This document shows, piece by piece, positions 37,106 to 57,364 of a stretch of 64,000 nt of DNA. Source of the stretch: a virus; the IMG/VR virus record IMGVR_UViG_3300044984_003188; one strand, given 5' to 3'. A program made the position numbers and the translations under genes. The number at the start of each line of letters is the position of its first letter. Within the stretch, counting starts at the first letter, position 1. Below the pieces are notes generated by a model, which worked only from the letters and a program-made list of their open reading frames with translations, ran no database searches and was not told the DNA's origin.

Positions 37106-37173
37106 CATAAGCACCTCCGTTGTATAAATAGCAATGTCAATAAGACTATTTCACAACGGAGGGTTAGCGCCAA
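37106..37173 (+). promoter_or_regulatory. Hairpin containing a late promoter and sequestering the endonuclease RBS (copy 1)
   Basis: CCTCCGTTGTATAAATAG pairs with CTATTTCACAACGGAGG; TATAAATA at 37123-37130. Confidence 0.8.
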
Positions 37174-38046
37174 ATGCACTATACTATTTATAAAATAACT
37201 AATAAGATTAATGGCAACTTTTATATAGGAAAACATAAAACCAAGAATCTAAATGATAAATATATGGGTTCTGGTAAACTTATACAAGCAGCCATAAAAA
37301 AACATGGTATTGAAAATTTTGAGAAAGAAATACTTGAGACTTTCAATACTGAAGAAGAAATGAATGAGGCCGAAAAAAGATATGTAGTTCTAGGTGAAGG
37401 TAGCTATAATCTTTGCCCTGGTGGACAAGGTGGTTGGGGTTATGTAAACACTAATAATCTTGGTGGTACCTTAGGATTAAAACACACTGAAGAATATAAA
37501 AACAATCATTCATTAATAACAAAAAGAATATATGAAAATAGGGATGAAGAAACTAAAAAAGATATTTCTAAGAAAATAGCTGCTGGTTTAAAAGCTGTAA
37601 ACTATGATCCAAGAAACTTTTTAGGTAAAAAACATACTCAAGAAGCAATACAAAAAATGTCCTTATCAAAGGAAGGACATGGACTTGGAGAAAAAAATAG
37701 TCAGTTTGGTACCATATGGATTTCTAATGGTATAGAAGAAAAAAAGATTAAAGCTTCTGATCAAATCCCAGAAGGATGGACTAAACAAAGATTACAATCA
37801 TTTAAAAATGATATATTAAAAGATATCAAGAAAAAAGAAAAAGAACAACAAAAAAATATTGCTCTTGAAACTAAAAAACAAGAACTACATAAACTTTATG
37901 AAATATATAAAGTTAAAGGTTTTGCAGGAGTTAGACAAGAAGACTATAAATATAGTCAACCATATTTAGTTATGAGTTTTGCAAAATATTTTCCTGATTT
38001 TACCCCACAAATGGGGAAGAAAAGAAAACAAAAATATTCCTCGTGA
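37174..38046 (+). CDS. Free-standing GIY-YIG (Seg-like) homing endonuclease
   Basis: YTIYKITNKIN..FYIGKH, YMGSG, YNL..GG motifs, NUMOD3-like GKKHT.E.IQKMS. Confidence 0.88.
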   Translation: MHYTIYKITNKINGNFYIGKHKTKNLNDKYMGSGKLIQAAIKKHGIENFEKEILETFNTEEEMNEAEKRYVVLGEGSYNLCPGGQGGWGYVNTNNLGGTLGLKHTEEYKNNHSLITKRIYENRDEETKKDISKKIAAGLKAVNYDPRNFLGKKHTQEAIQKMSLSKEGHGLGEKNSQFGTIWISNGIEEKKIKASDQIPEGWTKQRLQSFKNDILKDIKKKEKEQQKNIALETKKQELHKLYEIYKVKGFAGVRQEDYKYSQPYLVMSFAKYFPDFTPQMGKKRKQKYSS

Positions 38047-38114
38047 TCCGAGCAAGCGAACGGACCCGGCTGTTAACCGGAGTTTGCCAGGGGCGGTACC
38101 TGGACGAGGAGCCA
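38038..38114 (+). tRNA. tRNA-Asn(GTT), non-canonical D/T loops
   Basis: Acceptor TCCTCGT/ACGAGGA, loop CTGTTAA, T-loop GGCGGTA, G-CCA. Confidence 0.75.
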
Positions 38115-38122
38115 GTTTTATT

Positions 38123-38199
38123 GCTCCCTTAGCCCAACTGGTAGAGGCGTCTGACTTAAGATCAGATTAGTGCCAGTTCAAATCTGGCAGGGAGTACCA
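38123..38199 (+). tRNA. tRNA-Leu(TAA), short variable loop
   Basis: Loop CTTAAGA; CCA. Confidence 0.88.
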
Positions 38200-38203
38200 C
38201 TTT

Positions 38204-38288
38204 GGATCAGTAGCGTATATGTCAGGCAAGTGCTACAGCCGGGCTTTTAATCCGGTCGCAAGGGGAGCGTTACCTCACTGATCCTCCA
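38204..38288 (+). tRNA. tRNA-Lys(TTT), enlarged D-arm, non-canonical T-loop
   Basis: GGATCAG/CTGATCC, loop CTTTTAA, T-loop AGCGTTA, T-CCA. Confidence 0.7.
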
Positions 38289-38294
38289 CTTTAA

Positions 38295-38370
38295 TGTCCT
38301 GTAGCTCAATTGGGAGAGCATTTGCTTGATAAGCGAAAGGTAGTTGGATCGAAACCAACCAGGACAACCA
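38295..38370 (+). tRNA. tRNA-Ile(GAT)
   Basis: Loop TTGATAA; T-loop ATCGAAA; CCA. Confidence 0.85.
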
Positions 38371-38457
38371 TTCAGTTCTTGTTTCTCTTTCTATAGAGAA
38401 ATATAGAAGAGGCCTTCCAGTTGGGCTGATGAAATACACTGGATATATTCTAAGTTT

Positions 38458-38535
38458 GCGGTAGTCTTCTAATTGGACTAGGAACCCTGACTTTCAATCA
38501 GGCCAATGCGGGTTCGATTCCCGTCTACCGCACCA
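38458..38535 (+). tRNA. tRNA-Glu(TTC)
   Basis: Loop CTTTCAA; CCA. Confidence 0.88.
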
Positions 38536-38540
38536 AACTT

Positions 38541-38615
38541 GCTCTTAAAGCATAAGTGGCGATGCACGGGTTTTGTAATCCTGAGAACTTGGTTCGATTC
38601 CGAGTGAGAGCACCA
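38541..38615 (+). tRNA. tRNA-Thr(TGT)
   Basis: Loop TTTGTAA; CCA. Confidence 0.85.
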
Positions 38616-38675
38616 AATATCTATTGACTTTCCTTTAGTCTGTGATATAAAGATCATATAATGAGAGGTGATGAC

Positions 38676-39062
38676 ATGAGTACAATGAACCGAATTGGTA
38701 ATGCAGGCAATCGCTTCCAGGGCCAATTTAAACGGGTGCTATGTGTTTGCTCTGCAGGTCTTCTTAGGTCTCCAACCACAGCATTTGTTCTTTCACAAGA
38801 ACCTTATAACTTCAATACTCGTGCTGTTGGTATTTCTCGTGAATATGCTCTGATTCCGATTGATTCCGTTCATCTCCATTGGGCTGATGAAATTGTGACA
38901 ATGGAGAAAGCACATACTAAAGTTGTTGAAGAACTGATTAATACTTCTGGTCTAGGTTCAACTGGACCTAAAGTTATTCAGTTGAATATTCCCGACGATT
39001 TTGCATATCGTGATCCTCAGCTAATTGAACTTATCAAGAAGGCTTACGATTCACATAAATAA
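38676..39062 (+). CDS. Low-molecular-weight protein tyrosine phosphatase-like protein
   Basis: VLCVCSAGLLRSPT (CX5R), WADEI, IPDDF motifs. Confidence 0.8.
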   Translation: MSTMNRIGNAGNRFQGQFKRVLCVCSAGLLRSPTTAFVLSQEPYNFNTRAVGISREYALIPIDSVHLHWADEIVTMEKAHTKVVEELINTSGLGSTGPKVIQLNIPDDFAYRDPQLIELIKKAYDSHK

Positions 39063-39128
39063 AAGTTGTGGTATTAAGCGAAAATCAATTGACAGCTGAT
39101 TATATCCATGGTATACTATCTTAGTTAA

Positions 39129-39219
39129 GGGCGTGAGGGCTGGTGCTCACCAGGAGCTTATACCTCCTTAGGCAGCTGATTACTGTTGGGATAGGGTTCA
39201 ATTCCCTACGTGCCTACCA
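39129..39219 (+). tRNA. tRNA with TAT anticodon (Ile) and long variable arm
   Basis: AGGAG-CTTATAC-CTCCT; variable arm of about 23 nt; T-loop TTCAATT; A-CCA. Confidence 0.75.
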
Positions 39220-39306
39220 AAATTTTGATCTAGCTCAGATTAGGAATTACCTGGTTTGCGATGATGCTAGACGGATAGACCAATACGTGAGGTTTATCAA
39301 CAATTT

Positions 39307-39383
39307 GCTCCTGTTGACTAACTGGATAAGTTCACTGCCTTCTAAGCAGTTTTATGGGGGTTCGAATCCCTCCAGGAGTACCA
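39307..39383 (+). tRNA. tRNA-Arg(TCT)
   Basis: Loop CTTCTAA; CCA. Confidence 0.88.
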
Positions 39384-39402
39384 CTTTTAAAGGATCTATA
39401 CT

Positions 39403-39573
39403 ATGACAGGTAATGAAGATAACCAGCTTGCCGGATTAATTCTATTTGTAATTGGCATGTTTCTTTGTGGTTGTGCTGTAGGTGTATTTTTTGGTAAAGG
39501 ATTTGGATTCTTATTTGTAGGACTTCCATTACTTGCCATCGGCATTTACGGTATACTTACAGGCCCAAAGTAA
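39403..39573 (+). CDS. Small two-helix membrane protein
   Basis: SD AAGGA; 56 aa, hydrophobic. Confidence 0.55.
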   Translation: MTGNEDNQLAGLILFVIGMFLCGCAVGVFFGKGFGFLFVGLPLLAIGIYGILTGPK

Positions 39574-39745
39574 GTTCAGATATTGTGGTAAGTAAAGTCT
39601 ACGCTAAATCGGCTAGCTAGCGATGATAAGGTAGAGTGGATATAATCAATCCATAAAAGGAGAATGGGCAGATAATATCTCATAAATATTATTGGATACC
39701 TCACCTGCCACAAACCAGAACTTCTAATATAGAAAGGAATATATT

Positions 39746-40297
39746 ATGTCTTTCAACGTTCATGATCACTACAAGGATCTGAGTGTAGAAGATTTGAAGT
39801 TAATTTCTAATGCTACTCGACTACCATATGCAGTTTGTCTACTCAATTTAGAATATGACCTAAATATTGGCAACTGTATTCGAACTGCTCATATTTTTGG
39901 TGCTGAACAAGTCTTTATCTTTGGTCGTCGACGCTATGATCTAAGATCAACTGTTGGTGCTAATCACTATACTAATATTGTTAAGTATGATTTTGATGAA
40001 CTTACTGATGATGAAGTGATTGTCAATCAGTTTGAAAATATGGTTTATGACTATAATCTTGAGCCCTTGCTGATTGATAAAACAGCAGAATCAAGAGATA
40101 TTTCTGAATCTCACATTTATAATAATGGCGATCTAACAACACCATGTTTAGTCTTTGGAAATGAAAATTCTGGTATTCCGACTTGTCTAACGGATAAATA
40201 TCCATGCTTTCATATTCCACAACGTGGTGTAATTCGTTCACTCAATGTTGCTTCTGCCGCTGCGGTTGCAATGTATGAGTTCTCTAAATATCTATAA
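39746..40297 (+). CDS. SpoU/TrmH-family (SPOUT) RNA 2'-O-methyltransferase
   Basis: NIGNCIRTA, LVFGNENSGI, IPQRG..RSLNVASAAAVAMYE motifs. Confidence 0.9.
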   Translation: MSFNVHDHYKDLSVEDLKLISNATRLPYAVCLLNLEYDLNIGNCIRTAHIFGAEQVFIFGRRRYDLRSTVGANHYTNIVKYDFDELTDDEVIVNQFENMVYDYNLEPLLIDKTAESRDISESHIYNNGDLTTPCLVFGNENSGIPTCLTDKYPCFHIPQRGVIRSLNVASAAAVAMYEFSKYL

Positions 40298-40303
40298 GAA
40301 TAA

Positions 40304-40377
40304 GCGGAATTGGCGTAAAGGTAGCGTCTTTGGCTTCCACCCAAATGGCACGAGTTCGAATCTCGTATTCCGCACCA
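40304..40377 (+). tRNA. tRNA-Gly(TCC)
   Basis: Loop CTTCCAC; A-CCA. Confidence 0.88.
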
Positions 40378-40599
40378 GAGACCCGGTCTATAATCACGTA
40401 GCAATCAGTGGCTTGATTTGGTGAATCAAGATATTGTGGACAACCATCTACAGCTGAGTATGTTGAGTATAAATCGGTAAGAATTGATTCTTACGCTCGT
40501 GTGCAGGAACGACCTGCTAACCTTGTGTTTCAAGAGGTCTCGGCGCCTCGAGCTCCGTTCCGGGATTGCGAAACATAGTAAACGTAAGAATCAAACAGT

Positions 40600-40675
40600 T
40601 GCAGGGTAGAGGAGCTCGGTCGTCCTCGCCTGGTTCATACCCAGGAAATCGTGGGTTCAAATCCCACCTCTGCTA
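40600..40675 (+). tRNA. tRNA-Met(CAT), initiator-like, CCA not encoded
   Basis: 1:72 mismatch (T/T); loop TTCATAC; followed by CATAAGCAC. Confidence 0.8.
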
Positions 40676-40742
40676 CATAAGCACCTTGATTATATAAATA
40701 GCAATATCAATAAGACTATTATATAATCAAGGGTTAGCTTAA
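40676..40742 (+). promoter_or_regulatory. Late-promoter/RBS-sequestering hairpin (copy 2)
   Basis: CCTTGATTATATAAATAG pairs with CTATTATATAATCAAGG; TATAAATA at 40693-40700. Confidence 0.8.
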
Positions 40743-41441
40743 ATGTACTATACTATATACAAAATTACCAATAAGATTAATAATAAATTTTATATTGGTA
40801 AACACAAGACTAAAAAATTAGATGATGGTTATATGGGCTCAGGAAAACTTATCAAAGCCGCCATCAAAAAACACGGTAAAGAAAACTTTGAGAAAGAAAT
40901 ACTTGGTTTTTTTAATACCGAAAAAGAAATGGATGAAGCTGAAAAAATATATGTAGTTTTAAGTGAAAGTAGTTATAATCTTTGTCCTGGTGGGGAAGGT
41001 GGATGGGGATATGTTAATGAAAATAAATTATCTCCTATTATGAATCCTGAAACAAAAGTATATCAAAACGGTCGTAAAGCAACTGATCTTATTTTAGAAA
41101 GTAAATATGGTGAAAATTGGAGATCTGTTCTTTCAAATATTGCTAATTCTAAACTAAAAGCAATCTTAGAAAAAGACCCATTATATCTATCTAGTAAAAT
41201 TGGTTCTTTAAACCATTTCTTTGGGAAAAACCACACATCACATACAAAACAAAAAATGTCTTTATCTCACAAACATAAACACAATGGTGAGAAAAATTCA
41301 CAATTTGGTACCATTTGGATAACTGATGGTACCAATAATAAAAAAATAAAATTAGATGAACCGATGCCTGATAATTGGTATCGTGGTAGAAATATAAATG
41401 CCTTCAGATCAAGTGATCTCGGTCGTCTCATAAGCGACTAG
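40743..41441 (+). CDS. Free-standing GIY-YIG homing endonuclease
   Basis: YTIYKITNKINNKFYIGKH; paralogue of 37174. Confidence 0.88.
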   Translation: MYYTIYKITNKINNKFYIGKHKTKKLDDGYMGSGKLIKAAIKKHGKENFEKEILGFFNTEKEMDEAEKIYVVLSESSYNLCPGGEGGWGYVNENKLSPIMNPETKVYQNGRKATDLILESKYGENWRSVLSNIANSKLKAILEKDPLYLSSKIGSLNHFFGKNHTSHTKQKMSLSHKHKHNGEKNSQFGTIWITDGTNNKKIKLDEPMPDNWYRGRNINAFRSSDLGRLISD

Positions 41442-41471
41442 ATCGTGGAGCGTTACCACGTGAAGGCACCA
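41400..41471 (+). tRNA. Highly atypical tRNA(CAT)
   Basis: GCCTTCA/TGAAGGC, mini D-arm GATC-AAGT-GATC, 6-bp anticodon stem, loop CTCATAA, T-loop AGCGTTA, A-CCA. Confidence 0.65.
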
Positions 41472-41492
41472 ATTTGCTTTTAGGATAATGAT

Positions 41493-42188
41493 ATGAGTGT
41501 AGTTAGATTTTTTCTAGATGATTTATTCACAACCGATAGTTCGGAATATGAAATTTTACATAAAGCGGTTTTAGAGTGTAAAGATGTTCCTGGAGCTATA
41601 GTTGAAATAGGCACCAGAATGGGTGGTTCTGCTAGAATCATCATTGATTCTCTAGTATATAATTCAGATACGGATCGTTCAATGTTTTGTATTGATCCTT
41701 ATGGTAATATTGACTATATTAGTACAAATTTAAATGTAACACAACATTATCCAGGCACGCCAGTTTCTGGTGATCCTACTTCTAAAGATATAACTCAACC
41801 TATAAAACTTGATTATTCTAATGAAATGAGGAATAAAATTATTCCTTCTTTATATTATTATGCTTTTAGTAAAGGTATTAATTTTACTTTCTTTTGTATG
41901 GAAGACAGTGAATTTTTTGCTAGATTTAGCGATGGTGTGCCCGTCTATAATCAATTTAAGAAACTAGAAAATCAATATGCATTTGTTTTCTTTGATGGTC
42001 CACATCACAATGAAGCAGTTGAATTAGAAACAAAGTTCTTTGCAGAAAGATCAACCATCGGCACAGTTTTTGTTGCAGATGATATCTGGATGTATAATCA
42101 TGATTTATTTGAAAAAATTATTTTTGATCATGGCTTTACAGTCCTTGAAAAAGGTAATATTAAAGCTTCTTATAAGAAAACATCTTAA
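41493..42188 (+). CDS. Class I SAM-dependent methyltransferase (TylF/Methyltransf_24-like)
   Basis: GAIVEIGTRMGGS, IDPYG, FFDGPH, VADD motifs. Confidence 0.75.
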   Translation: MSVVRFFLDDLFTTDSSEYEILHKAVLECKDVPGAIVEIGTRMGGSARIIIDSLVYNSDTDRSMFCIDPYGNIDYISTNLNVTQHYPGTPVSGDPTSKDITQPIKLDYSNEMRNKIIPSLYYYAFSKGINFTFFCMEDSEFFARFSDGVPVYNQFKKLENQYAFVFFDGPHHNEAVELETKFFAERSTIGTVFVADDIWMYNHDLFEKIIFDHGFTVLEKGNIKASYKKTS

Positions 42189-42198
42189 GGTTTAAAAT

Positions 42199-42831
42199 AT
42201 GCTTGAAACGTGTTGTGACTTAATGGTTGAAGCCTATGAAAAAGGGCTTATGACTTCTAGAGATGGGAATGTATCTCTACGCTATAGAGGTCAAGACTTT
42301 TTCTATCTATCTCCAACAGATATGCGAAAACAGACTCTTAAGCCAGATCAGTTTAAGAAACTATCCACTTCACTAAAGGAAGATCGTTCACCAATTGCTC
42401 TTCCTTATACAAATATTTCTCTTGGTTTAAAGCCGTCGGGTGAGTTTCCATTGCACTACATGCTACAACGATTGCTTCCAAAGGATTGGGAAACTCGGGT
42501 AGTAATTCATACTCATTCAACTTATACAGTTGCCGCTATGCATGCTGGTCTAGAACTTCATCGGCTTAAAGATCACTTTCCTGAGATTGCTAGATATACT
42601 AAAGTAGCTAAAAGCACTGATGATGTTCCTCCTATTTCTTGGGATTTAGCTGAAGCTTGTATGGAAAACATGAAGCTAAATATGGCTACCGGTGAAACTG
42701 AGTTTAATATTGTCGGTATTAAAGGTCATGGTGTGGTTTCAGTTGATAAGACTCCTTGGAGAGCTTATGAGCATATCGAGAGGCTTGAACACATCTCTAA
42801 GATAATTTTGAGCTCAGGTAAAGGAATTTAA
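42199..42831 (+). CDS. Class II aldolase/adducin family protein
   Basis: RDGNVS, PSGE..LH, IHTHS, GHGV motifs. Confidence 0.85.
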   Translation: MLETCCDLMVEAYEKGLMTSRDGNVSLRYRGQDFFYLSPTDMRKQTLKPDQFKKLSTSLKEDRSPIALPYTNISLGLKPSGEFPLHYMLQRLLPKDWETRVVIHTHSTYTVAAMHAGLELHRLKDHFPEIARYTKVAKSTDDVPPISWDLAEACMENMKLNMATGETEFNIVGIKGHGVVSVDKTPWRAYEHIERLEHISKIILSSGKGI

Positions 42832-42871
42832 TTGACACACTAACTATAGTGTGATATATTAAATAAATAAT

Positions 42872-42960
42872 GGGGAGGCTGTTCCGACGGTGGTGGGACG
42901 GCAGTCTGTAAAACTGTTACATTAGAAACATTGTAGGTTCGAATCCTATCCTCCCCACCA
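42872..42960 (+). tRNA. tRNA-Tyr(GTA)
   Basis: Loop CTGTAAA; long variable arm; CCA. Confidence 0.88.
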
Positions 42961-42984
42961 TTTTTCAATGAAAAGGATATAAAT

Positions 42985-43494
42985 ATGAAGACTATTCTTA
43001 TGGCTACAATTATGGCACTTGGTATGACTTCGGTTGCAATTGCCCAGAGTAAGAACGCTTCCGATAGTGGATTTTTTGTCGGTGGGCAGGTAGGATCATT
43101 TACAGGTAAGAATGATCAAGTTACCATTGGTTTAAATGGTGGATATCAAGTCAATCGTTTTCTCCGTGGTGAAGTTACTGTAGAAAATGCTTGGAAGACC
43201 GGAACAGGTTCTGGAACTATGGTATTTGCAAATGTTGTTCCGCAGTACCGAATCCCTGGCACTACTCTAACACCATATGCAGTGGCAGGTGTAGGTTATG
43301 CTTTTGATTCCCTAGGTGCAGTTAAGAGTGGTGTTGCTTCTCCGGTTTATAATCTAGGACTAGGAACACGTGTCATGATCACTGATAATCTTGATGCTGA
43401 TCTTCGCTGGCGTAATGTCCGTTCAATGAATGGTTCTAATGCTCGTGTTCGTGATGACCATATTTTTATGGTTGGTGCATCTTATAAGTTCTAA
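42985..43494 (+). CDS. Outer-membrane beta-barrel protein (OmpA-TM/Ail-like)
   Basis: Signal peptide, alternating beta strands, TPYAVAGVGY, C-terminal GASYKF. Confidence 0.8.
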   Translation: MKTILMATIMALGMTSVAIAQSKNASDSGFFVGGQVGSFTGKNDQVTIGLNGGYQVNRFLRGEVTVENAWKTGTGSGTMVFANVVPQYRIPGTTLTPYAVAGVGYAFDSLGAVKSGVASPVYNLGLGTRVMITDNLDADLRWRNVRSMNGSNARVRDDHIFMVGASYKF

Positions 43495-43576
43495 AATAAA
43501 TACGGGGACGTGGGATAAACACCCGACAATCCATGTCTTAATTTGAGAATTGGTAATCTCTCCCGAAACATTTTAT

Positions 43577-43652
43577 GGTGAGTGGAGTCAGTAGGTATGG
43601 ACGGTGGTCTGTGAAACCATCTAAGCGGGATCAATACCCGTCACTCACCCCA
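43577..43652 (+). tRNA. tRNA-His(GTG) with G-1:C73
   Basis: G-GTGAGTG/CACTCAC-C-CCA; loop CTGTGAA. Confidence 0.85.
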
Positions 43653-43665
43653 ACTTAAATAATAC

Positions 43666-43758
43666 GGAGAGTGAACCGGACAGGCGTACCGGGCTCGCCT
43701 TGAAAGCGATGCGAACCCTTAAAAAGGTTTGGACTTCGAGTGTACCCGCTCTCCGCCA
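43666..43758 (+). tRNA. tRNA-Ser(TGA)
   Basis: Loop CTTGAAA; long variable arm; G-CCA. Confidence 0.85.
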
Positions 43759-43774
43759 TTTTTTTAGGTCTACA

Positions 43775-43951
43775 ATGCAAGATATAGATCAACATATAGA
43801 CACTAAAGAATTCAATCAGTCATTTTGGGAATGGTTTGACAATCTTCCCGAGATTAAACGAAATCAATTCAACTATTATAAAAGTGATCTTGCTAAAATA
43901 AACTTTTATAATACACAATGGCGTTATCGACTCCATGGCTCGAATGGCTAG
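43775..43951 (+). CDS. Small hypothetical protein overlapping tRNA-Cys
   Basis: MQDIDQH...FWEWFDNL; stop lies inside tRNA-Cys. Confidence 0.5.
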   Translation: MQDIDQHIDTKEFNQSFWEWFDNLPEIKRNQFNYYKSDLAKINFYNTQWRYRLHGSNG

Positions 43952-44004: not shown

Positions 44005-44008
44005 ACTT

Positions 44009-51300: not shown

Positions 51301-51801
51301 GGTTCACGGTCATGTTTTGTTCCTTTCTTAGCCGCAGTTCTTGCGGAGATAGATATAGATACGGCCATTATGATATGGACTTGTCGAGCGCTTGATGGAG
51401 AGACTGACGCCATAGTCCCGAGCTCCATCATAGAGCTGAGCGATGAAGTCATCTTGACGATCAAATACCTTCCTAACAGTGGCCTTACCATATACTTCAA
51501 GTTTATTCCAGACGAGGTTGGTGTCGATACGATTCACGGTCATGTTCTGTTCCTTGTTCATAGTCTCTTTATAACCCAACTTGGTATTAAAGTCAATAGG
51601 TATTTTTCAATCCTTGCGACTGACCCAGAGCACGTCGGAATCGAGGCGGGCCGCCATCTCGGTCAGATCCAAACCATAATGGATCACTCGGTCGAGCAGG
51701 TCACTCTTCTTAACCTCGACCCAAAAGAATTCGTTTCGGCTGTTAACCAGCACTCTGATGGGCCCACGGTGGGCCTTGATGGTGGAGTATAGGTCGGTCA
51801 T
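48389..51801 (-). CDS. Leftward operon of about 12 small hypothetical early proteins (e.g. 48389-48694, 49054-49236, 49238-49570, 49582-49974, 50017-50241, 50248-50556, 50558-50773, 50777-51001, 51005-51313, 51328-51543, 51607-51801)
   Basis: Tightly packed same-strand ORFs with SD sites, fed by promoters at 51596 and 51854; no recognisable function. Confidence 0.6.
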
Positions 51802-51811
51802 GTTTGTTTCC

Positions 51812-52285
51812 TTCATCATAGTCTCTTTATACCACCATCTGATTTAAAAGTCAACACTAAGGATATCAATGACTTAGCCGTTTCAGGTACCTAACCCTTT
51901 GAAAAGATTATCAAAACTTTTTTAGGCAATCCAAAAAAATTTCAAAAAAGTTTGAGCACACCATGGTGCCCAGACACCCATAGAACCAAAAAGTCAATCT
52001 TTTCAATGGGTTAGGCTTTAAGCAAAAGTTAATGATATCAATGGGTTAGGCTAAGAAAGGGTTTCTGGGCAGCCTAAGCCACCATGGATGGATATACCAT
52101 ATGCCTAACTCAAAGCTAGCAGAGGTCGTCATGCTAACCCATTGATAAGATTAAGACCTACATTTTTTTCAAAAAATTTAAGTTTTTTATTCCAAGGAAA
52201 TCAATGGGTTAGGTAGGTCGCCATGCTAACCCATTGATTTGTCACGGTTGACATTTTTTATGGATGGTGGTATAAAGTGACTATG
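51812..52285. repeat. Non-coding hub B: inverted homologue of hub A with seven CTAACCCATTGA-type boxes
   Basis: Boxes at about 51866, 51891, 52003, 52038, 52134, 52201 and 52226; divergent promoters at both ends. Confidence 0.85.
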
Positions 52286-52321
52286 AACAAGGGAATGACG
52301 ATGAACAAGGGAATGACGATG
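52283..52321 (+). repeat. Tandem duplication of the 18-nt leader ATGAACAAGGGAATGACG
   Basis: Two exact copies, then ATG at 52319. Confidence 0.9.
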
Positions 52322-52525
52322 ACCGCTAACGAAATCTGGGACACCCTCGAGGAAACCGGTCGGTTTGCCTCTCGTGAGGCTTATGGGTCGATGTGGGCTG
52401 ACCGCATCGCTGAGCTGAAGGCTGAACTGTATGCTGCCGCCAAGGAATATGGGGTGCGTCTATCCATCACCTGGGCCTTGACCAACGACAAGTTTTATGT
52501 CCAGCTGCGTAAGAATGTGGGTTGA
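52319..52525 (+). CDS. Hypothetical early protein (paralogue of 51328-51543)
   Basis: AELYAAAKEYGVRLSI..FYVQLRKNVG versus AQLYDGARDYGVSLSI..IYIYLRKNCG. Confidence 0.65.
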   Translation: MTANEIWDTLEETGRFASREAYGSMWADRIAELKAELYAAAKEYGVRLSITWALTNDKFYVQLRKNVG

Positions 52526-52574
52526 CTTTAATACCAAGTTGGGTTATAAAGAGACTATGAACAAGGAAGTCAAG

Positions 52575-52970
52575 ATGACCAAAGAAACGGCTACCCAGCG
52601 TCGTGCACGTGAACGGCAGGAACTGGTTCGGGCGCAGCAGGAGCGTGAGCAGAAGTTTGAAGCTGAGAAATCCATTCGACTCCTGCATGCCATAGCTCGT
52701 GCTCATCATCAGGGGGTGGATGCGCAAATGTTTTACCGCTATGACAATGTGCTCTACTATGACTTCAACTTCAGCAAGATCAACCTGCCCAACAGCTACG
52801 ACTCGATTTGCGGTCCGGTGGCTGAACTCAGCGAGTGGATGATGGACAGCATCGAAAATCAACTCAAGCTTGTTGAAGAAGCTCGTGACCGTGGCAAGCG
52901 GTTGGCAAATCTTAAGAAAGAAGTGCTGGCTCGACTGAGTGACGAGGAACGTGAAGCTCTGGGAGTTTAA
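52575..52970 (+). CDS. Hypothetical early protein
   Basis: Own promoter cassette 52522-52550; C-terminal L..L..EEREALGV. Confidence 0.65.
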   Translation: MTKETATQRRARERQELVRAQQEREQKFEAEKSIRLLHAIARAHHQGVDAQMFYRYDNVLYYDFNFSKINLPNSYDSICGPVAELSEWMMDSIENQLKLVEEARDRGKRLANLKKEVLARLSDEEREALGV

Positions 52971-52975
52971 TAACA

Positions 52976-53491
52976 ATGAATGACCGTTTCCGTAAGACTC
53001 TTGTTCTTGCACTTCGACCGGATACCGGAGAGAACGAAGCTGCAGCTGCTTTTAGCGCTCTTCGTAGAATGGCTTCAAGCGGAAACGTTTCTACTCTTCT
53101 AGATGAAAAGCCTGAAACTAAGGTTGTTTATAAAGATAAAACCGTGTATATGTCTGAATCTTATACACACAAACTTACATATACAGTTAATATTAAAGCA
53201 ACATACCTTCAGGATTATATCCACACTGTTTTTACAAATGCAGTAAAAGGTGGTATGTGCATTCATATTATCCATCTAAAATCTTCTGATAACAAGATCA
53301 CATCTCCATCAGAACTTAAGTTCAATGTTCTTGGATATGAAAAGGGTATTAAACGATTTTCTGATTTTCTTGATCGTGTTGAGCTCGAAATGCTTCAAAA
53401 ATCACAGAATAATTCTAAAGCACCTGATTACTCAGACAAAGTGAAAAAGCCTGGTTTTATGAAGCAACTTTTTCGAGCCATATTTAACTAA
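52976..53491 (+). CDS. Hypothetical protein (N-terminus resembles DUF2786-type helices)
   Basis: LALR.DT.ENEAAAAF pattern. Confidence 0.55.
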   Translation: MNDRFRKTLVLALRPDTGENEAAAAFSALRRMASSGNVSTLLDEKPETKVVYKDKTVYMSESYTHKLTYTVNIKATYLQDYIHTVFTNAVKGGMCIHIIHLKSSDNKITSPSELKFNVLGYEKGIKRFSDFLDRVELEMLQKSQNNSKAPDYSDKVKKPGFMKQLFRAIFN

Positions 53492-53564
53492 AAGGTATTG
53501 ACATTTACCCAAATATGGATATAATAGTCTATGACAAAATGATGTAATATGGAAAGATTATAAT

Positions 53565-53744
53565 ATGCAAGTATATAATGATGTTTGGGGTAAAGTAAGG
53601 TGTCAAGTCTCGGATCAAGTCCATGTTAAAGTACCAATGCAAATTTGTAATGAAGCCTGGAGACAATTATGGGGTTCAAATGCAAGACATATTTCACGTC
53701 AAGTATTTCATACATTAAATGAACTAGATGAAACCAGTCTATAA
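53565..53744 (+). CDS. Small V/W/Q-periodic protein
   Basis: VW.KV..QVSDQV, similar to the 35713 and 35883 ORFs. Confidence 0.45.
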   Translation: MQVYNDVWGKVRCQVSDQVHVKVPMQICNEAWRQLWGSNARHISRQVFHTLNELDETSL

Positions 53745-53803
53745 TCAAGTATTTCATGAACTCTTAGACTAAAAATATAAAAATACACAGAAAAGGAAAA
53801 AAG

Positions 53804-54226
53804 ATGAGTGACTTTAAAGACTTTGCAGGACAGACTCTAAAGTGGACCGCTATCGGTGGTGTTTGTTTAGGTATTGTTGCTGGTGGGGCATTTTTGCTCA
53901 ATGTTGCAACCCAACCTCTTCGTACCGCTGGTGGTGTTATCAATCGAACATTTGATGCAGACAATGTGATTGCTAAATATGAATGGTTCCATGATGCACA
54001 TGGACAATACCAAGCACGAGTCAATCAAATTGTGTCGACCCGACAAATGTATATCGAAGAGAAAGATGTTGCCGAGCGTTCTCGCCTTCGGATTGAACTA
54101 TCTGCACAACGTCAATCTTGCCGTGATATCGTGACTCGATATAATGCAAATGCTACCAAGACTAATGTCTCGATTTTCCAAGGTCGAGAAGCACCTTCTT
54201 CCCTTAACATTCAAACTTGTGAGTAA
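53804..54226 (+). CDS. Membrane-anchored hypothetical protein
   Basis: N-terminal transmembrane helix; YEWF..., YNANA motifs. Confidence 0.65.
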   Translation: MSDFKDFAGQTLKWTAIGGVCLGIVAGGAFLLNVATQPLRTAGGVINRTFDADNVIAKYEWFHDAHGQYQARVNQIVSTRQMYIEEKDVAERSRLRIELSAQRQSCRDIVTRYNANATKTNVSIFQGREAPSSLNIQTCE

Positions 54227-54232
54227 TATATA

Positions 54233-54763
54233 ATGAATAAGATGATCTTCCCCGTCGTTGCTCTAGTTTCTGGCGCTATTCTTCTTACTGGTTGTAATGA
54301 AGATAAGCCTGCACAACCACAAGTAAAGAATGCCCAGGCTGAACTTGCCCAACGAGCAGCAAATTCAATTCAGTTCACCGATAATGCTGAAATTGACAAT
54401 ATCAAGAACCGAGTTGAACTTACCAGCAAGCCAGGTCTTCTTGGTTATGTAATTCTATTCAATGAATCCGGACAGCCCATTATGTATGAAGGTGTTCGTG
54501 GTAAGATTACTTCTGGTTCTAAGCGCCTAACAGCACCCGATCGTGCACAACAGATTTCCACTCATGGCAATAACGGCGGTCAGCACTCTGTGGTTCGCCA
54601 AGCACCATCTGATGAAGGAACTTATGGTTCTTCCAACCCATATATCTTCTATTGGAATATTGATGGTGTTTATCGCCAGTGGAGTGGCCACTATCTCTAT
54701 TCTACACAGCCAATGCGTCTAACCATTCAGCCTCTAGTTGTTAATATTGAGGAAAAGAAGTAA
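54233..54763 (+). CDS. Lipoprotein
   Basis: Lipobox LTGC. Confidence 0.7.
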   Translation: MNKMIFPVVALVSGAILLTGCNEDKPAQPQVKNAQAELAQRAANSIQFTDNAEIDNIKNRVELTSKPGLLGYVILFNESGQPIMYEGVRGKITSGSKRLTAPDRAQQISTHGNNGGQHSVVRQAPSDEGTYGSSNPYIFYWNIDGVYRQWSGHYLYSTQPMRLTIQPLVVNIEEKK

Positions 54764-55215
54764 TGGATTATACCATTACAATTGGTTGTGATCATGCAGG
54801 TCTGGAGCTAGCCCGAGAAATCTCGGTATGGCTCTTTGACTCTGGTCATAAGATCCACACTTTCTTTCCGGCACCAAATACACACGTTGATTATCCAGAC
54901 TATGCCCATAGAACATGTTCTTCCGTTACTCTAGAATCTCACACTACAAGTCGTGGTATTCTGGTCTGTGGTTCTGGTGTAGGCATGGCAATTGCGGCTA
55001 ATCGACATGCTGGAATTCGTTGTGTAAATACAAATGATCCAGAGATTGCTAAGATTGCAAGAGAACATAATGATGTAAATGTTCTTGCACTTGGTGCTCG
55101 ATTTGCATCTGATAGAGATAAAATCTGGAATTGCATCACTAATTTCCTTCAGACTAAATATGAAGGTGGGCGACATGAACAACGAGTTATGAAACTATTT
55201 GGAGTATATAAATGA
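54763..55215 (+). CDS. rpiB: Ribose-5-phosphate isomerase B
   Basis: GCDHAG, DYPDYA, CGSGVGM.IAANR, AREHND.NVL.LGAR, GGRH motifs. Confidence 0.93.
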   Translation: MDYTITIGCDHAGLELAREISVWLFDSGHKIHTFFPAPNTHVDYPDYAHRTCSSVTLESHTTSRGILVCGSGVGMAIAANRHAGIRCVNTNDPEIAKIAREHNDVNVLALGARFASDRDKIWNCITNFLQTKYEGGRHEQRVMKLFGVYK

Positions 55216-56180
55216 AATTTGTAATTGCAGGCTTAACGGCAACTCTACTGACTACAACAGCACATGCACAAGTACTAAACGGTGCTGGTGCTACATTCCC
55301 TGCACCGATTTATTCTAAATGGGCAGAAGAATCTAAATCTGCTGGATTTGGAATTAACTATCAAGCAATTGGTTCTGGTGGTGGGCAAAATCAAATCATC
55401 AACCGAACAGTTGATTTTGGAGCATCAGATGCTCCTATGACACTAGAAAAACTAAAACAATATAATCTGTTTCAAGTTCCTACGGTTATGGGATCGGTTG
55501 TTGTTATTGTAAATATTCCTGGTATTGCTACAAATACCTTAAATATTTCTGGGCAAAATCTAGTTGATATTTTCAATGGTAAGATTACCAAATGGAATGA
55601 TCCAAAGATTGTTGTAGATAATCCAAGTTTAAAACTACCTAATATGGCAATTGCACCAGTCTATCGTGCTGATGGTTCAGGTACCACATTTGTGTTTGTT
55701 TCATATCTACATTCACAAGATAAAGATTTTAGTGTGCCTGCGGTATCAATCAAGTGGAATGCTGGTTCAGGCGCCCGTGGTAATGATGGCGTAGCAGCCA
55801 CTGTAAAGCGCATGCCGGGATCAATCGGTTATGTTGAAAAAGTTTTTGCCACAAATAATAATATTCCAACTGCAGTGCTAAAGAGTGCAACTGGAGCTTG
55901 GGTAGCACCTAGCAATAAAAGCTTTATGGCAGCAGTAGCTAAAGCAGATTGGTCGGATACTAATGAAGCAAATGTAATTAATCGCTCTTGTGATGAATGC
56001 TATCCTATTGTATCCGCAACATATGTTCTTATTCCCAAGGACTCTAAGAAGCTAAATGAGATTACAAGTTGGCTAGAATGGGTTTATAAAAATGGAAATG
56101 CCTCAGCGATTTCCCTTGACTTTATCCCACTTTCGGATTATAATAAGGGTATGGTAATCAAACAACTAAAGAATCAGTAA
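55212..56180 (+). CDS. pstS: Phosphate-binding periplasmic protein PstS
   Basis: GAGATFPAPIY, YQAIGSGGG, VDFGASDAP, RADGSGTT motifs. Confidence 0.95.
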   Translation: MKFVIAGLTATLLTTTAHAQVLNGAGATFPAPIYSKWAEESKSAGFGINYQAIGSGGGQNQIINRTVDFGASDAPMTLEKLKQYNLFQVPTVMGSVVVIVNIPGIATNTLNISGQNLVDIFNGKITKWNDPKIVVDNPSLKLPNMAIAPVYRADGSGTTFVFVSYLHSQDKDFSVPAVSIKWNAGSGARGNDGVAATVKRMPGSIGYVEKVFATNNNIPTAVLKSATGAWVAPSNKSFMAAVAKADWSDTNEANVINRSCDECYPIVSATYVLIPKDSKKLNEITSWLEWVYKNGNASAISLDFIPLSDYNKGMVIKQLKNQ

Positions 56181-56190
56181 TAGTTTAACT

Positions 56191-56265
56191 GCGCCTATAG
56201 CTTAACAGTAAAGCCGACAGCTCATAACTGTCTTGATCTCCGGGCAGAACGGGGTGGGCGCACCA
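56191..56265 (+). tRNA. tRNA(CAT), Ile2 or elongator Met, non-canonical T-loop
   Basis: Loop CTCATAA; T-loop GGCAGAA; A-CCA. Confidence 0.75.
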
Positions 56266-56277
56266 AAGGAATATATC

Positions 56278-56505
56278 ATGCTACTAAAAGACTTCATTTC
56301 ATTACTTCAAGATAAATATGAGAATGCAACTGCTGATGAAGCATATCTTGAAGTAATGGGTGAACCTGAAATTTATGTAGATACATTTGAAGAAGCAGGT
56401 GGATATCGGTATGTTTATGCCGGCTATTCACCGGATATCAAAGTTGATATGGATCCTGCTAATGGTAATTACGTAATATCTGCTTTTGGAGATTCTCGTG
56501 AGTAA
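56278..56505 (+). CDS. Hypothetical protein
   Basis: SD AAGGA; 75 aa. Confidence 0.55.
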   Translation: MLLKDFISLLQDKYENATADEAYLEVMGEPEIYVDTFEEAGGYRYVYAGYSPDIKVDMDPANGNYVISAFGDSRE

Positions 56506-56535
56506 ATTGACAGGTTCTATTTTTAAAGCTAAAAT

Positions 56536-56609
56536 GCCCGTATAGCCCAATTGGCAGAGGTAGCAGTTTCAAAAACTGTGTGTTGTCGGTTCGAATCCGA
56601 CTACGGGTA
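56536..56609 (+). tRNA. tRNA-Leu(CAA), short variable loop, CCA not encoded
   Basis: Loop TTCAAAA; followed by CATAAGCAC. Confidence 0.85.
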
Positions 56610-56677
56610 CATAAGCACTCGAAAATTATAAATAGCAATATCAATAAGACTATTTATAATTTTCGAGGTTAGCTCAA
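56610..56677 (+). promoter_or_regulatory. Late-promoter/RBS-sequestering hairpin (copy 3)
   Basis: CTCGAAAATTATAAATAG pairs with CTATTTATAATTTTCGAG; TATAAATA at 56627-56634. Confidence 0.8.
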
Positions 56678-57364
56678 ATGTTTTATACTATCTATAAAAT
56701 TACTAATAAAATTAATAACAAATATTATGTAGGTAAACATCAAACCAAAAATTTAGATGATAATTATATGGGTTCTGGTAAACTTATCAAAGCAGCCATT
56801 AAAAAACATGGTAAAGAAAACTTTAAAAAAGAAATATTACATATATTTGATAATGAATTAGAAATGAATACCAAAGAAAAAGAATTGGTTGTAGTAAGTG
56901 AATCAACTTATAATCTTATTGAAGGTGGTAAGGGTGGGTTTAGTTACATTAATAAAAATAATCTTAAATTACCACTTAATGAAAATAGCAAACAAAAAAT
57001 AGCAAATACTGTCAGAGAACATTGGCAAAATGGTGTTTATGAAAAAAATAAACAAAAGTTAATTAAACAAAATAGAACAATAAAGAAATCTACAAATTTT
57101 TCAATTAATAAATCTATACTTAAAAAAGCATTAGAACAAGCACAATCTCCCAATGCTGTTATGAAAAGAAAACAGACTTTTATAGAAAATAAACATCAAC
57201 AAGGATCAAAAAATTCTCAGTTTAATACCTGCTGGATTAATAATGGTTTTGAAAATAAAAAAATTAAAAAAGATCAACTTGAAATTTATCTTGAACAAAA
57301 CTGGATAAAAGGTAGGTTGATCCTTCAAAAGGAAATATATTATGGAAGATATGAAGTTTTGTAA
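56678..57364 (+). CDS. Free-standing GIY-YIG homing endonuclease
   Basis: YTIYKITNKINNKYYVGKH; paralogue of 37174 and 40743. Confidence 0.88.
   Translation: MFYTIYKITNKINNKYYVGKHQTKNLDDNYMGSGKLIKAAIKKHGKENFKKEILHIFDNELEMNTKEKELVVVSESTYNLIEGGKGGFSYINKNNLKLPLNENSKQKIANTVREHWQNGVYEKNKQKLIKQNRTIKKSTNFSINKSILKKALEQAQSPNAVMKRKQTFIENKHQQGSKNSQFNTCWINNGFENKKIKKDQLEIYLEQNWIKGRLILQKEIYYGRYEVL

Follow-up and report, generated by a model that had tools for sequence, protein, structure and literature searches.

The 64,000-nucleotide stretch of viral DNA analyzed here (the window), which belongs to a T4-like phage known only by its sequence, carries three GIY-YIG endonuclease genes, each lying behind a tRNA gene without a contiguous CCA, and syntenic relatives differ in the presence or absence of such free-standing cassettes in their tRNA clusters. 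The three cassette ORFs are members of the T4 SegB family of free-standing GIY-YIG homing endonucleases. The best explanation of our observations, and in our judgement a very probable one, is that the cassettes are free-standing SegB-family homing genes that have their own regulatory leader and target the 3' ends of tRNA genes.

Three SegB-like cassettes and the tRNA genes they adjoin

ARAGORN identified 24 tRNA genes in the window, and for 21 of these N73-CCA could be read directly from the 3' end. The earlier note had named tRNA-Lys(CTT), an unusual tRNA-Met(CAT) and tRNA-Leu(CAA) as the only genes without CCA after N73, and this was confirmed. Within the window, CCA is encoded by none of the three cassette-adjoining tRNA genes versus all 21 others (Fisher p = 5e-4). 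The arrangement described for the three genes, in which N73 is followed by a shared sequence, a hairpin, GGTTAGC..AAATG and a GIY-YIG ORF, was likewise recovered at each of them, the shared sequence being CATAAGCAC. This 9-mer is confined to the three cassettes, since a search of both strands gave no other copy in the window. The base 3' of N73 is a C at all three junctions, so that the cassette either left C74 in place or brought it along; the junction accordingly falls at N73^C or at C74^A.

Over ~94% of their length the three ORFs share about 38–44% identity with T4 SegB (E-values 2e-43, 9e-42 and 6e-37). For the Lys-cassette protein the identity is 43.8% (E 9e-42) and for the Met-cassette protein 43.5% over 94% of T4 SegB (tblastn), with segB as the top of the five places in T4 that the latter matches. 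All three ORFs match PHROG 314 'homing endonuclease' (E 1e-35 to 3e-44), and they score barely above the cut-off of 22.6 bits for the Pfam GIY-YIG family PF01541 (22.7–24.6 bits). In a four-way alignment of the three ORFs and T4 SegB the residues Y3, Y6, Y17, G19, E67 and N79 are invariant; we take Glu67 and Asn79 to be the equivalents of Glu75 and Asn90 of I-TevI. An N-terminal GIY-YIG domain and the blocks GKKHT..KMS, GEKNSQFG..WI and KKIK are also common to the window proteins and T4 SegB, and NUMOD3 (PF07460) gave a score in the Met copy only, 19.4 bits against a cut-off of 20.4. The C-terminal (DNA-binding) halves show at most 43% identity to any homologue, so that they may not share the specificity of T4 SegB. 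No fourth SegB-like copy was found in the window.

Features of the window that are relevant to the three cassettes
Feature	Position	Strand	Remarks
tRNA-Lys(CTT)	37034..37105	+	Ends at discriminator T37105; no encoded CCA; ARAGORN, Rfam tRNA 62.1 bits
Lys-cassette leader	37106..37173	+	CATAAGCAC, hairpin with TATAAATA (37123-37130), GGAGG in 3' arm, GGTTAGC
Lys-cassette SegB-like GIY-YIG endonuclease	37174..38046	+	290 aa; stop codon inside next tRNA-like gene
tRNA-Asn(GTT)-like gene, non-canonical, with CCA	38040..38116	+	Right boundary of Lys cassette; read from sequence
tRNA-Arg(TCT) with CCA	39307..39383	+	Empty site in window; sister cassette here in L094, L096, L098 and L099
tRNA-Met(CAT), unusual	40600..40675	+	Ends at discriminator A40675; no encoded CCA; ARAGORN, Rfam 51 bits
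Met-cassette leader	40676..40742	+	Hairpin; TATAAATA at 40693-40700; AAGG in 3' arm
Met-cassette SegB-like GIY-YIG endonuclease	40743..41441	+	232 aa; 3' end overlaps next tRNA-like gene
Minimal tRNA-like gene	41400..41472	+	Anticodon loop CTCATAA, CCA end; right boundary of Met cassette
tRNA-Leu(CAA)	56536..56609	+	Ends at discriminator A56609; CCA not contiguous; ARAGORN, Rfam 56.1 bits
Leu cassette	56610..57554	+	945-nt insertion versus empty allele L103; position ambiguous by 2 nt
Leu-cassette SegB-like GIY-YIG endonuclease	56678..57364	+	228 aa; clade other than that of Lys and Met copies
Cys-rich ORF	57342..57563	+	73 aa; within Leu inserted segment
Displaced CCA of tRNA-Leu(CAA)	57555..57557	+	Followed by original flank AAATAATGGTTGACA; alignment to L103 2557-2616

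Empty and occupied sites in related phages

The relatives used for comparison (L089–L104 and others) are metagenomic contigs and not direct ancestors of the window phage. They are syntenic with the window, as judged by a SpoU-family methylase (window 39746-40297; 79–88% identical) and a Ro60-like protein (86%). According to the earlier note, cassette-free relatives should carry CCA at the tRNA genes concerned, and such alleles were found for all three. The orthologous tRNA-Lys(CTT) of L094, L091, L092 and L093 continues with T-CCA-TTCTT, with an acceptor end identical to the window's in L094 and L091; the anticodon stem differs from that of L094 by a compensatory change, an indication that the window gene is still under selection. 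In L089 to L093 the orthologous tRNA-Met continues with A-CCA-CTTT and then the next gene, without a cassette, and the orthologs of L003 and L100 likewise end in CCA. In L103, tRNA-Leu(CAA) has the same acceptor end and is followed by A-CCA-AAATAATGG, again without a cassette. The base after CCA in these empty alleles is C, T or A, and thus not uniformly the CCAR preferred by T4 SegB. The reciprocal situation exists at tRNA-Arg(TCT): the window has an intact gene, and four relatives carry a sister cassette there (Table). This reciprocal occupancy shows mobility among tRNA genes and, together with the empty alleles, supports the earlier proposal of a mobile unit that targets tRNA 3' ends. Decay products were also observed: in L098 a cassette with an internal deletion, and in L104 a leader on its own.

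The insertion is clean at the Leu site, where window 56530-56610 aligns with positions 2478-2557 of L103 and window 57554-57616 with 2556-2616 (87%); the ambiguity of 2 nt arises because AC is repeated at both ends. The small Cys-rich ORF of this segment matched neither Pfam nor PHROG. The Arg cassette of L094 ends in ...TTAA followed at the boundary by CCGTTTCAAG, compared to CCACTTTCAAG in the empty allele, and its displaced CCA is present as CCG. The claim that the cassette replaces the CCA needs correcting at least for the Leu site and the L094 Arg site, where the CCA was split or displaced. No displaced CCA was found at the Lys and Met right junctions, and these two insertions are therefore not demonstrably clean. 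At the Lys site, homology to the empty allele L091 picks up again at 38023. The tRNA-Asn(GTT)-like gene at this boundary was called by neither ARAGORN nor Rfam and has the T-loop GGCGGTA without GTTCRA; with L091 4716-4811 it shares 90% identity, the anticodon stem differing by compensatory changes. As its minimum free energy is no better than that of shuffled sequences (z +0.23), this stem covariation is the structural evidence for the gene. The minimal tRNA-like gene at the Met boundary (dG −26.3, z −3.5) is located 4 nt past the CCA of tRNA-Met in the empty allele L091, with three compensatory pairs in its acceptor stem (GCCTTCA/TGAAGGC versus GCTTTTG/CAAAAGC).

The same association was analyzed across 80 SegB-like loci from IMG/VR metagenomes, counting as adjoining any upstream tRNA on the same strand whose N73 lies 30–90 nt before the ATG. 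Such a tRNA was present at 48 of the 80 loci, and CCA was missing in 42 of these 48 versus 53 of the 594 other tRNAs of the same loci. Expressed as CCA kept, 6/48 adjoining tRNAs compare to 541/594 other tRNAs at these loci (Fisher p = 8e-33) and to 708/725 in an independent tRNA sample (p = 6e-49), where near-duplicates among the 80 loci cause the p-values to overstate independence. The adjoining tRNAs represent 17 isotypes on unrelated contigs, and the register of the junction tracks the protein tree: in one clade 25 of 26 junctions read N73-CA(T/C), and in the clade with T4 SegB they read CCY, CCA or otherwise. In this tree the Arg copy of a relative groups with the Lys and Met copies (SH-aLRT 99), and the Leu copy belongs to a separate clade as sister to L059, whose cassette lies behind tRNA-Ile. 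The suggested spread within the genome is thus borne out for the Lys and Met copies. Tentatively, and with rather more doubt than confidence, we consider a wider generalization, in which SegB cassettes would be separate elements, their ends defined to the nucleotide, that can enter the CCA of a tRNA gene of any isotype. The insertion register (after C74, C75 or A76) would then be inherited within each enzyme clade and reveal the position of the cut. CCA-less tRNA genes and rearranged tRNA clusters would arise repeatedly in T4-like phages as cassettes are gained, move and decay, and tRNA genes whose T-loops have been rewired, like the two beside the window cassettes, would go unrecognized by the enzyme.

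Leader, proposed mechanism and alternative explanations

The leader hairpins of the three window cassettes have dG values of −19 to −22 kcal/mol with z-scores of −4.5 to −7.2 (Lys: −21.1 and −4.5; Met: −19.2 and −5.1), and none of 200 shuffled sequences folds as well. They share covarying stems and a conserved loop, TATAAATAGCAAT(A/G)TCAATAAGACTA, which a search of the window located only at the three cassettes, and are followed by GGTTAGC..AAATG. The Lys leader and ORF start are 91% identical to the L094 Arg cassette over 339 nt, with one compensatory stem pair, and the N-terminal 95 aa of the two proteins are 95% identical. A long hairpin was found in 29 of 29 leaders from different contigs (dG −12.8 to −28.5, z at most −2.0), and all eight consensus pairs show compensatory changes in this set. 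The ribosome-binding site is buried in the hairpin, and the T4 late-promoter consensus TATAAATA lies inside it in all three window leaders. This consensus occurs 18 times in the window versus 7.7 expected (0/100 shuffles reach 18), for instance at 6854 upstream of the tail sheath gene (ATG at 6906) and at 14431 upstream of the major capsid gene (ATG at 14472). From these sequence features, cassette expression appears to be restricted in time by an I-TevI-type control via the candidate late promoter. The hairpin would hide the ribosome-binding site in RNA that reads through from the tRNA cluster, and initiation at the candidate promoter would yield a translatable transcript without the 5' arm, so that the cassette ORFs would be translated only late.

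T4 SegB recognizes the tRNA T-arm motif GGTTCRANTCC within a required 27 bp, cuts mostly just 3' of CCAR leaving 2-nt 3' overhangs, and also cleaves a site without CCA, at a position 3 nt upstream (PMC2330249). The insertion point in our cassettes, C74/C75, is within 1–3 nt of this mapped cut (PMC2330249). By analogy, we infer that the cassette proteins cleave at the CCA region: in a genome that lacks the cassette, the enzyme would bind a tRNA gene at the T-arm and the 3' part of the acceptor and make a staggered double-strand cut at or beside the CCA. The break would then be repaired by recombination with a cassette-bearing genome, whereby the cassette is copied in, with tRNA-N73-C, the cassette and (C)CA-flank as the product. 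As the T-arm motif and CCA are common to every tRNA gene, the element could also reach non-allelic tRNA genes; in this phage lineage it is found at the Lys, Met, Arg and Leu(CAA) genes. Once the insertion has parted CCA and T-arm, the preferred cut lacks its positioning sequence and self-cleavage is probably lowered, but the cutting of CCA-less sites by T4 SegB implies that loss of the CCA alone cannot give full immunity. The tRNA transcript left by the insertion would have to be trimmed and then given CCA after transcription, and the three tRNAs would thus depend on CCA addition. In T4, CCA is added to the CCA-less tRNAs after transcription.

An unlikely alternative is that the cassettes have ceased to be selfish elements: the phage would have domesticated these SegB paralogues and would retain them for the recombination, amplification or exchange of the tRNA array that cuts in tRNA genes promote. 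One such benefit would be escape from host defences that target tRNAs, which has been shown for T6 SegB. This alternative overlaps with the homing explanation, the difference being which benefit maintains the genes. The intactness of the three window ORFs would fit domestication, as would the variable content and order of the tRNA cluster between relatives and the complete T4 SegB core motif in 12 of the 24 window tRNA genes. However, close relatives differ in occupancy and the copies in L098 and L104 have decayed; such a cycle of gain and loss is what selfish homing genes should show, and not what one expects of useful genes that have become fixed, and no amplified tRNA segment was seen in the window.

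Two further explanations dispense with targeted insertion as the cause of the missing CCA, and we consider both to be highly improbable. If the CCA had been lost before the cassettes settled preferentially behind, or were tolerated at, CCA-less tRNA genes, it would be understandable that only one of the four CCA-less tRNA genes of T4 adjoins segB, and that in the independent sample only ~3 of ~15 well-formed CCA-less tRNAs are linked to a SegB cassette or remnant. These numbers indicate that CCA loss has other causes too, but at each of the four sites (Lys, Met, Leu(CAA) and Arg) the cassette-free ortholog carries CCA, and the displaced CCA with the original flank at the Leu right end and the CCG at the L094 Arg cassette also contradict a prior loss. 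The shared junction could instead reflect segmental duplication of a block consisting of a tRNA 3' end plus cassette, or a leader that is merely a common phage promoter or processing module. Indeed, the leader and the first ~90 codons are far closer between copies than the rest of the genes, which shows that the 5' module was exchanged by recombination. Against this stand the similarity between copies that starts exactly after N73 while the three tRNA bodies are unrelated, the empty alleles with CCA, the occurrence of the junction behind many isotypes on unrelated contigs, and the restriction of CATAAGCAC and the loop motif to the three cassettes.

Relation to known systems

The biochemistry of T4 SegB (PMC2330249) and the clustering of its homologues, which are widely associated with tRNA genes of many isotypes and for which the T6 SegB cleavage motif RAWTSGAAC corresponds to the T-loop on the other strand (PMC13096335), have already been published, and the targeting of tRNA 3' ends is therefore not new. 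The window cassettes are fresh members of a known family, and the empty alleles of Lys, Met and Leu(CAA) and the occupied Arg gene are among the new facts, as are the clean 945-nt insertion at the Leu site, the CCA counts at the IMG/VR loci and the late-promoter consensus in a leader hairpin that buries the ribosome-binding site. The published survey works at a scale of ±1000 bp, with 0 occurrences of the term CCA, and does not include the nucleotide-level junction, the CCA state of the adjoining tRNA or the leader architecture (PMC13096335), all of which are given by the present analysis.

Like the window genes, T4 segB is intergenic in a tRNA cluster, wedged against the next tRNA gene, starts a few tens of nucleotides past a CCA-less tRNA (41 nt after tRNA-Ile) and has a hairpin that occludes translation initiation. 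Unlike T4, the window has three copies in 20 kb, a junction after C74 instead of after N73 or CCA, and a late-promoter consensus in the hairpin, whereas no promoter is known near T4 segB (PMC2330249). Moreover, the C-terminal halves have strongly diverged, the Lys copy bears a C-terminal extension of ~75 aa, and the Leu cassette carries a second small ORF. The proposed regulation resembles that of I-TevI, where the ribosome-binding site or start codon lies in the 3' arm of a hairpin and a late promoter lies within or just before it, such that only late transcripts are translatable; the window genes differ in being free-standing and in having a hairpin that starts 5–9 nt past the tRNA discriminator base and thus also makes the 3' trailer of the tRNA precursor. 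Integrase-borne islands and prophages insert in the 3' end of tRNA genes and rebuild the tRNA end from their own attachment site. The cassettes described here share with them the 3' part of a tRNA gene as the target, but a GIY-YIG nuclease is their sole enzyme, and they deprive the tRNA of a contiguous CCA.

Endonuclease cassettes and CCA-less tRNA genes in the phage

The window belongs to a T4-like myovirus and encodes large terminase, tail sheath, portal and major capsid protein, as well as a gp15 sheath stabiliser, a clamp-loader subunit, a DNA ligase, a UvsW-type helicase, a gp46-like nuclease subunit, and PstS-like and NAD-salvage genes. The best matches of the capsid protein are 66-71% identical and come from Stenotrophomonas DLP_6, Methylophilales Melnitz and Sinorhizobium phiM12. 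The one hit of a nucleotide search against deposited phage genomes was a tRNA match of 77 nt, so that no cultured phage is closely related. One ORF matches the TET-associated glycosyltransferase family (PF20691, E 6e-48), which suggests that the phage DNA may contain a glycosylated modified base; this is relevant because T4 SegB cuts modified DNA.

ARAGORN identified 24 tRNA genes in the window, all on the + strand, and 21 of these encode N73-CCA, N73 being the discriminator base. Just three genes lack a contiguous CCA: tRNA-Lys(CTT), a tRNA-Met(CAT) whose D arm is unusual, and tRNA-Leu(CAA). All three read N73-CATAAGCAC, a 9-mer that is absent elsewhere in the window, followed by a long hairpin, the motif GGTTAGC..AAATG and an ORF of 290, 232 or 228 aa. 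The tRNA 3' ends and the ORFs thus confirmed an earlier note, which had described three endonuclease cassettes, at these coordinates, that begin at the discriminator base and replace the CCA. The three encoded proteins match the Pfam GIY-YIG family only just over threshold, and PHROG 314 'homing endonuclease' strongly. T4 SegB is matched by all three copies (E 2e-43 to 6e-37); the Met-cassette protein is 43.5% identical to it over 94% of the length, and segB is the top of the five places in T4 that this protein matches. The alignment with T4 SegB conserves the GIY-YIG tyrosines, Glu67 and Asn79, and the blocks GKKHT..KMS, GEKNSQFG..WI and KKIK are common to the copies and T4 SegB. The window contains only three SegB-like copies, each adjoining a tRNA gene. 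The cassettes can be assigned to the SegB family as real and well-defined members.

The Rfam tRNA model scores the three CCA-less tRNAs normally (51-62 bits), and tRNA-Lys(CTT) has a compensatory anticodon-stem change relative to its ortholog at an empty site, so that all three genes seem functional. After transcription, their RNAs would have to be trimmed and completed with CCA, or CA. In T4, the CCA-less tRNAs depend on the host RNase BN and tRNA nucleotidyltransferase. A Pfam scan of 29 window ORFs detected no phage enzyme for CCA addition or trimming.

Coordinates of features in the window and in the metagenomic (IMG/VR) contigs compared with it
Sequence	Position	Feature
Window	25834-26784	ORF matching PF20691
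Window	37015-37022	TATAAATA box upstream of tRNA-Lys(CTT)
Window	38040-38116	tRNA-Asn(GTT)-like gene
Window	39307-39383	tRNA-Arg(TCT)
Window	39746-40297	SpoU-family methylase gene
Window	41400-41472	minimal tRNA-like gene
Window	41418	CTCGGTC(GT)CTCATAAGC
Window	44738	GGTTAGCGCC after tRNA-Pro
Window	56610	end of homology with L103
Window	57554	resumption of homology with L103
Window	57342-57563	73-aa Cys-rich ORF
L003	1533-1607	counterpart of minimal tRNA-like gene
L008	4894	N73 of tRNA-Pro(TGG)
L091	4672-4731	spacer after CCA at the empty Lys site
L091	4733-4811	counterpart of tRNA-Asn(GTT)-like gene
L091	about 7046-7119	counterpart of minimal tRNA-like gene
L095	65-141	tRNA-Arg(TCT)
L098	5658-5830	decayed cassette

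Cassette-free and cassette-bearing alleles of four tRNA genes

Relatives were found via the SpoU-family methylase gene that is located between the Lys and Met cassettes. This search returned syntenic metagenomic relatives with 79-88% protein identity, which have in common the order Glu, Thr, Ile, Arg, SpoU, Gly, Met, Tyr, Cys, Pro, Val, Phe, Gln and so on. The Lys site is empty in contig L094, where a near-identical tRNA-Lys(CTT) ends ...CTCGGTCC-T-CCA-TTCTTAAATC. The CCA and flank are the same in L091-L093, and the tRNA body differs, partly by compensating acceptor-stem changes. The Met site is empty in L089-L093: the unusual tRNA-Met ends A-CCA-CTTT, directly followed by a small tRNA-like gene. 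The Arg site shows the reciprocal situation, since tRNA-Arg(TCT) ends G-CATAAGCAC and is followed by a cassette in L094, L096, L098 and L099, and has an A-CCA-CTTT end without a cassette in the window. For the Leu site, contig L103 was found via a Ro60-like gene (86% identity); it has the same tRNA-Leu(CAA) acceptor end, then CCA-AAATAATGGTTGACA. Taken together, at all four sites the empty allele has CCA and the occupied allele N73-C plus cassette. Cassette-free relatives keep CCA at the Lys, Met and Leu(CAA) tRNA genes, so that the overall reading of the earlier note, a mobile family directed at tRNA 3' ends, was right in substance and is supported by the comparison of relatives that the note itself had proposed.

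The interrupted homology between the window and L103, which resumes with A-CCA-AAATAATGGTTGACA (87% over 63 nt), identifies the Leu cassette as a clean 945-nt insertion within CCA, with the CCA and original flank displaced to the right end of the cassette. The register is the same at the right end of the L094 Arg cassette, which reads ...ACTTAA and then CCGTTTCAAG, compared to CCACTTTCAAG in the empty allele. The Met cassette exactly fills the space from N73-C to the next gene, replacing CA-CTTT, and the Lys cassette stands in place of a spacer of about 45-50 nt; neither of these two sites shows a displaced CCA. As read from these junctions, the insertion point lies at most 1-3 nt from the T4 SegB cut. 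We considered a 2-nt target duplication, as AC is present at both ends of the Leu cassette. This is absent at the L094 Arg site and was treated as coincidence. A 73-aa Cys-rich ORF (CxxC ... C ... C) lies inside the Leu insertion and is thus carried along with the endonuclease gene; neither Pfam nor PHROG gave a match for it.

Two further alleles deserve mention. In L095, tRNA-Arg(TCT) reads N73-CAC-TTCTTATG and leads directly into the SpoU-family methylase gene without a cassette, which may reflect a one-base loss inside CCA or a sequencing error. At the empty Lys site of L091, the spacer after the CCA is a hairpin whose loop contains TATAAATA, and there is no ORF between this hairpin and the next tRNA-like gene.

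The minimal tRNA-like gene next to the Met site has a reduced D arm, the anticodon loop CTCATAA, the T-loop AGCGTTA and a CCA end. It lies directly behind tRNA-Met in the empty alleles and directly behind the cassette in the occupied window allele. Three compensatory pairs in its acceptor stem, window versus L091, indicate that the structure is under selection. The GTTCRA core that a SegB site contains is missing from this gene. The Met cassette has CTCGGTC(GT)CTCATAAGC at its 3' end, which was considered as a relic of a tRNA-Lys/cassette junction; this was rejected because these bases form the D and anticodon part of the same conserved tRNA-like gene, which also follows tRNA-Met in empty alleles. 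The tRNA-Asn(GTT)-like gene, with the T-loop GGCGGTA and a CCA end, has compensatory changes in the anticodon stem relative to its L091 copy; the equivalent region of L094 contains a canonical tRNA-Asn instead. ARAGORN misses the tRNA-Asn(GTT)-like gene, and Rfam at a permissive threshold recognised neither of the two flanking genes.

Leader hairpins, distribution and decay of the cassettes

The leaders of the three window cassettes fold into hairpins of -19 to -22 kcal/mol (z -4.5 to -7.2), with GGAGG, AAGG or GAGG in the 3' arm, 9-11 nt ahead of the ATG, and TATAAATA in the 5' arm or loop. The 29 leaders compared from different contigs, T4 among them, all fold alike, and compensatory changes occur in 8 of the 8 consensus-stem pairs. 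In one sub-type, T4 included, the start codon itself lies inside the 3' arm. The sequence TATAAATA, the T4 late-promoter consensus, occurs 18 times in the window (7.7 expected) and is found 30-50 nt upstream of the sheath and capsid genes. One TATAAATA box stops 11 nt short of the first base of tRNA-Lys(CTT), so that this tRNA may be transcribed late too, with a very short leader. The 10-mer GGTTAGCGCC after tRNA-Pro was examined as a solo leader and attributed to chance, since hairpin and junction motif are absent and CCA is present. In L008, tRNA-Pro(TGG) is followed by a typical SegB-type leader (CATAAGCGCC, hairpin, GGGTCA) and then by a different, Cys-rich ORF of 230 aa; here another gene may have taken over the leader module.

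Scanning IMG/VR with an alignment of SegB-like proteins yielded 80 loci, and in 48 of them the N73 of a same-strand tRNA lies 30-90 nt upstream of the start codon. These 48 tRNAs represent 17 isotypes; CCA is kept in only 6 of them, and 26 read N73-CAT. This compares to CCA in 541/594 other tRNAs of the same loci (p = 8e-33) and in 708/725 tRNAs of an independent sample of 80 loci picked via an unrelated protein (p = 6e-49), p-values that overstate independence due to near-duplicates among the SegB-like loci. The isotype spread and the protein tree show that there were many separate events, and several loci have a second cassette behind another CCA-less tRNA, so that multiple copies per genome are common. 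In the tree, the window Lys and Met copies and the L094 Arg copy form one clade (SH-aLRT 99), and the Leu copy is placed elsewhere, beside a cassette that follows tRNA-Ile. The junction register tracks the tree: 25 of 26 junctions in a clade of 37 read N73-CA(T/C), and those in a clade of 28, which holds T4 SegB, read N73-CC(T/C), retain CCA or are of other types. In the window lineage, identity is 81-95% for the leader and the first 95 residues, and the C-terminal halves have at most 43% identity to anything; the Lys cassette shares 91% DNA identity with the L094 Arg cassette up to about codon 90. This pattern indicates that the 5' module has been exchanged by recombination. The C-terminal domain showed no correlation with the isotype of the neighbouring tRNA.

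Decayed cassettes that leave the tRNA without CCA are present in L098, L096 and L099. The L098 remnant is internally deleted, consisting of the leader (promoter mutated to TAGAAATAG) and fragments of the first and last codons. In L104, a CCA-less tRNA-Gly(TCC) is followed by the leader alone and then by an unrelated, epimerase-like ORF. The idea that most CCA-less phage tRNA genes are SegB footprints was not supported: in the independent sample only about 3 of about 15 well-formed exceptions could be tied to a cassette or remnant, and cassettes thus account for some of these genes, not most. When IMG/VR was scanned for exact patterns, the tRNA-Lys 3' end gave no hit, and all hits of the tRNA-Leu 3' end were unrelated tRNA-Leu(TAA) genes, which are CCA-less too and have a hairpin but no SegB-like gene behind them. 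In the unrelated viral contigs L084-L087, the hairpin behind such a tRNA-Leu(TAA) carries a late-promoter-like box and precedes ORFs that are not SegB-like, and other homing genes may follow a similar rule.

Comparison with T4 SegB

The T4 SegB site comprises 27 bp, the 5' part of which, GGTTCRANTCC, is the tRNA T-arm motif; the enzyme cuts mostly immediately 3' of CCAR, leaving 2-nt 3' overhangs, and on a CCA-less site the cut is shifted 3 nt upstream (PMC2330249). Homing of segB into T2L, which lacks segB, is about 100% efficient (PMC2330249, Brok-Volchanskaya et al.). Enrichment of SegB homologues within 1 kb of tRNA genes, irrespective of isotype, has been shown, as has the amplification of tRNA genes driven by T6 SegB (PMC13096335, 2026). 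Based on this biochemistry and enrichment, the central inference of the earlier note, tRNA 3'-end targeting, is established biology for the type member, and the principle is already published. The term CCA is absent from the 2026 paper (PMC13096335). In T4, segB starts 41 nt past tRNA-Ile, which itself lacks CCA; tRNA-Gln, tRNA-Pro and tRNA-Ser are also CCA-less and do not adjoin segB.

To this, the present sequence comparisons add three things: the rule, at nucleotide resolution, that insertion takes place inside CCA in a clade-specific register; reciprocal pairs of empty and occupied alleles for four tRNA genes; and a complete leader with a late-promoter consensus in the hairpin. The rule ties sequence to published biochemistry, as relatives in dozens of uncultivated phages are inserted at the region beside CCA that T4 SegB cuts. 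For annotation, a phage tRNA gene that has N73-CA(T/C) or N73-CC(T/C) and precedes a hairpin containing TATAAATA marks a SegB-type cassette or remnant, and the paired alleles are natural substrates for studies of GIY-YIG target choice and self-cut avoidance. Recent work links SegB to the evasion of bacterial defences that cleave tRNAs, which makes the location of SegB genes in tRNA arrays useful for reading phage genomes. The established picture of homing endonucleases is unchanged by these results. Late control of the I-TevI type, in which the hairpin hides the ribosome-binding site and a late transcript without the 5' arm is translatable, was suspected for segB by the 2008 authors, whose argument was incomplete, T4 having no promoter there (PMC2330249). 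The present leaders differ from that of T4 segB in that the putative promoter consensus is in place.
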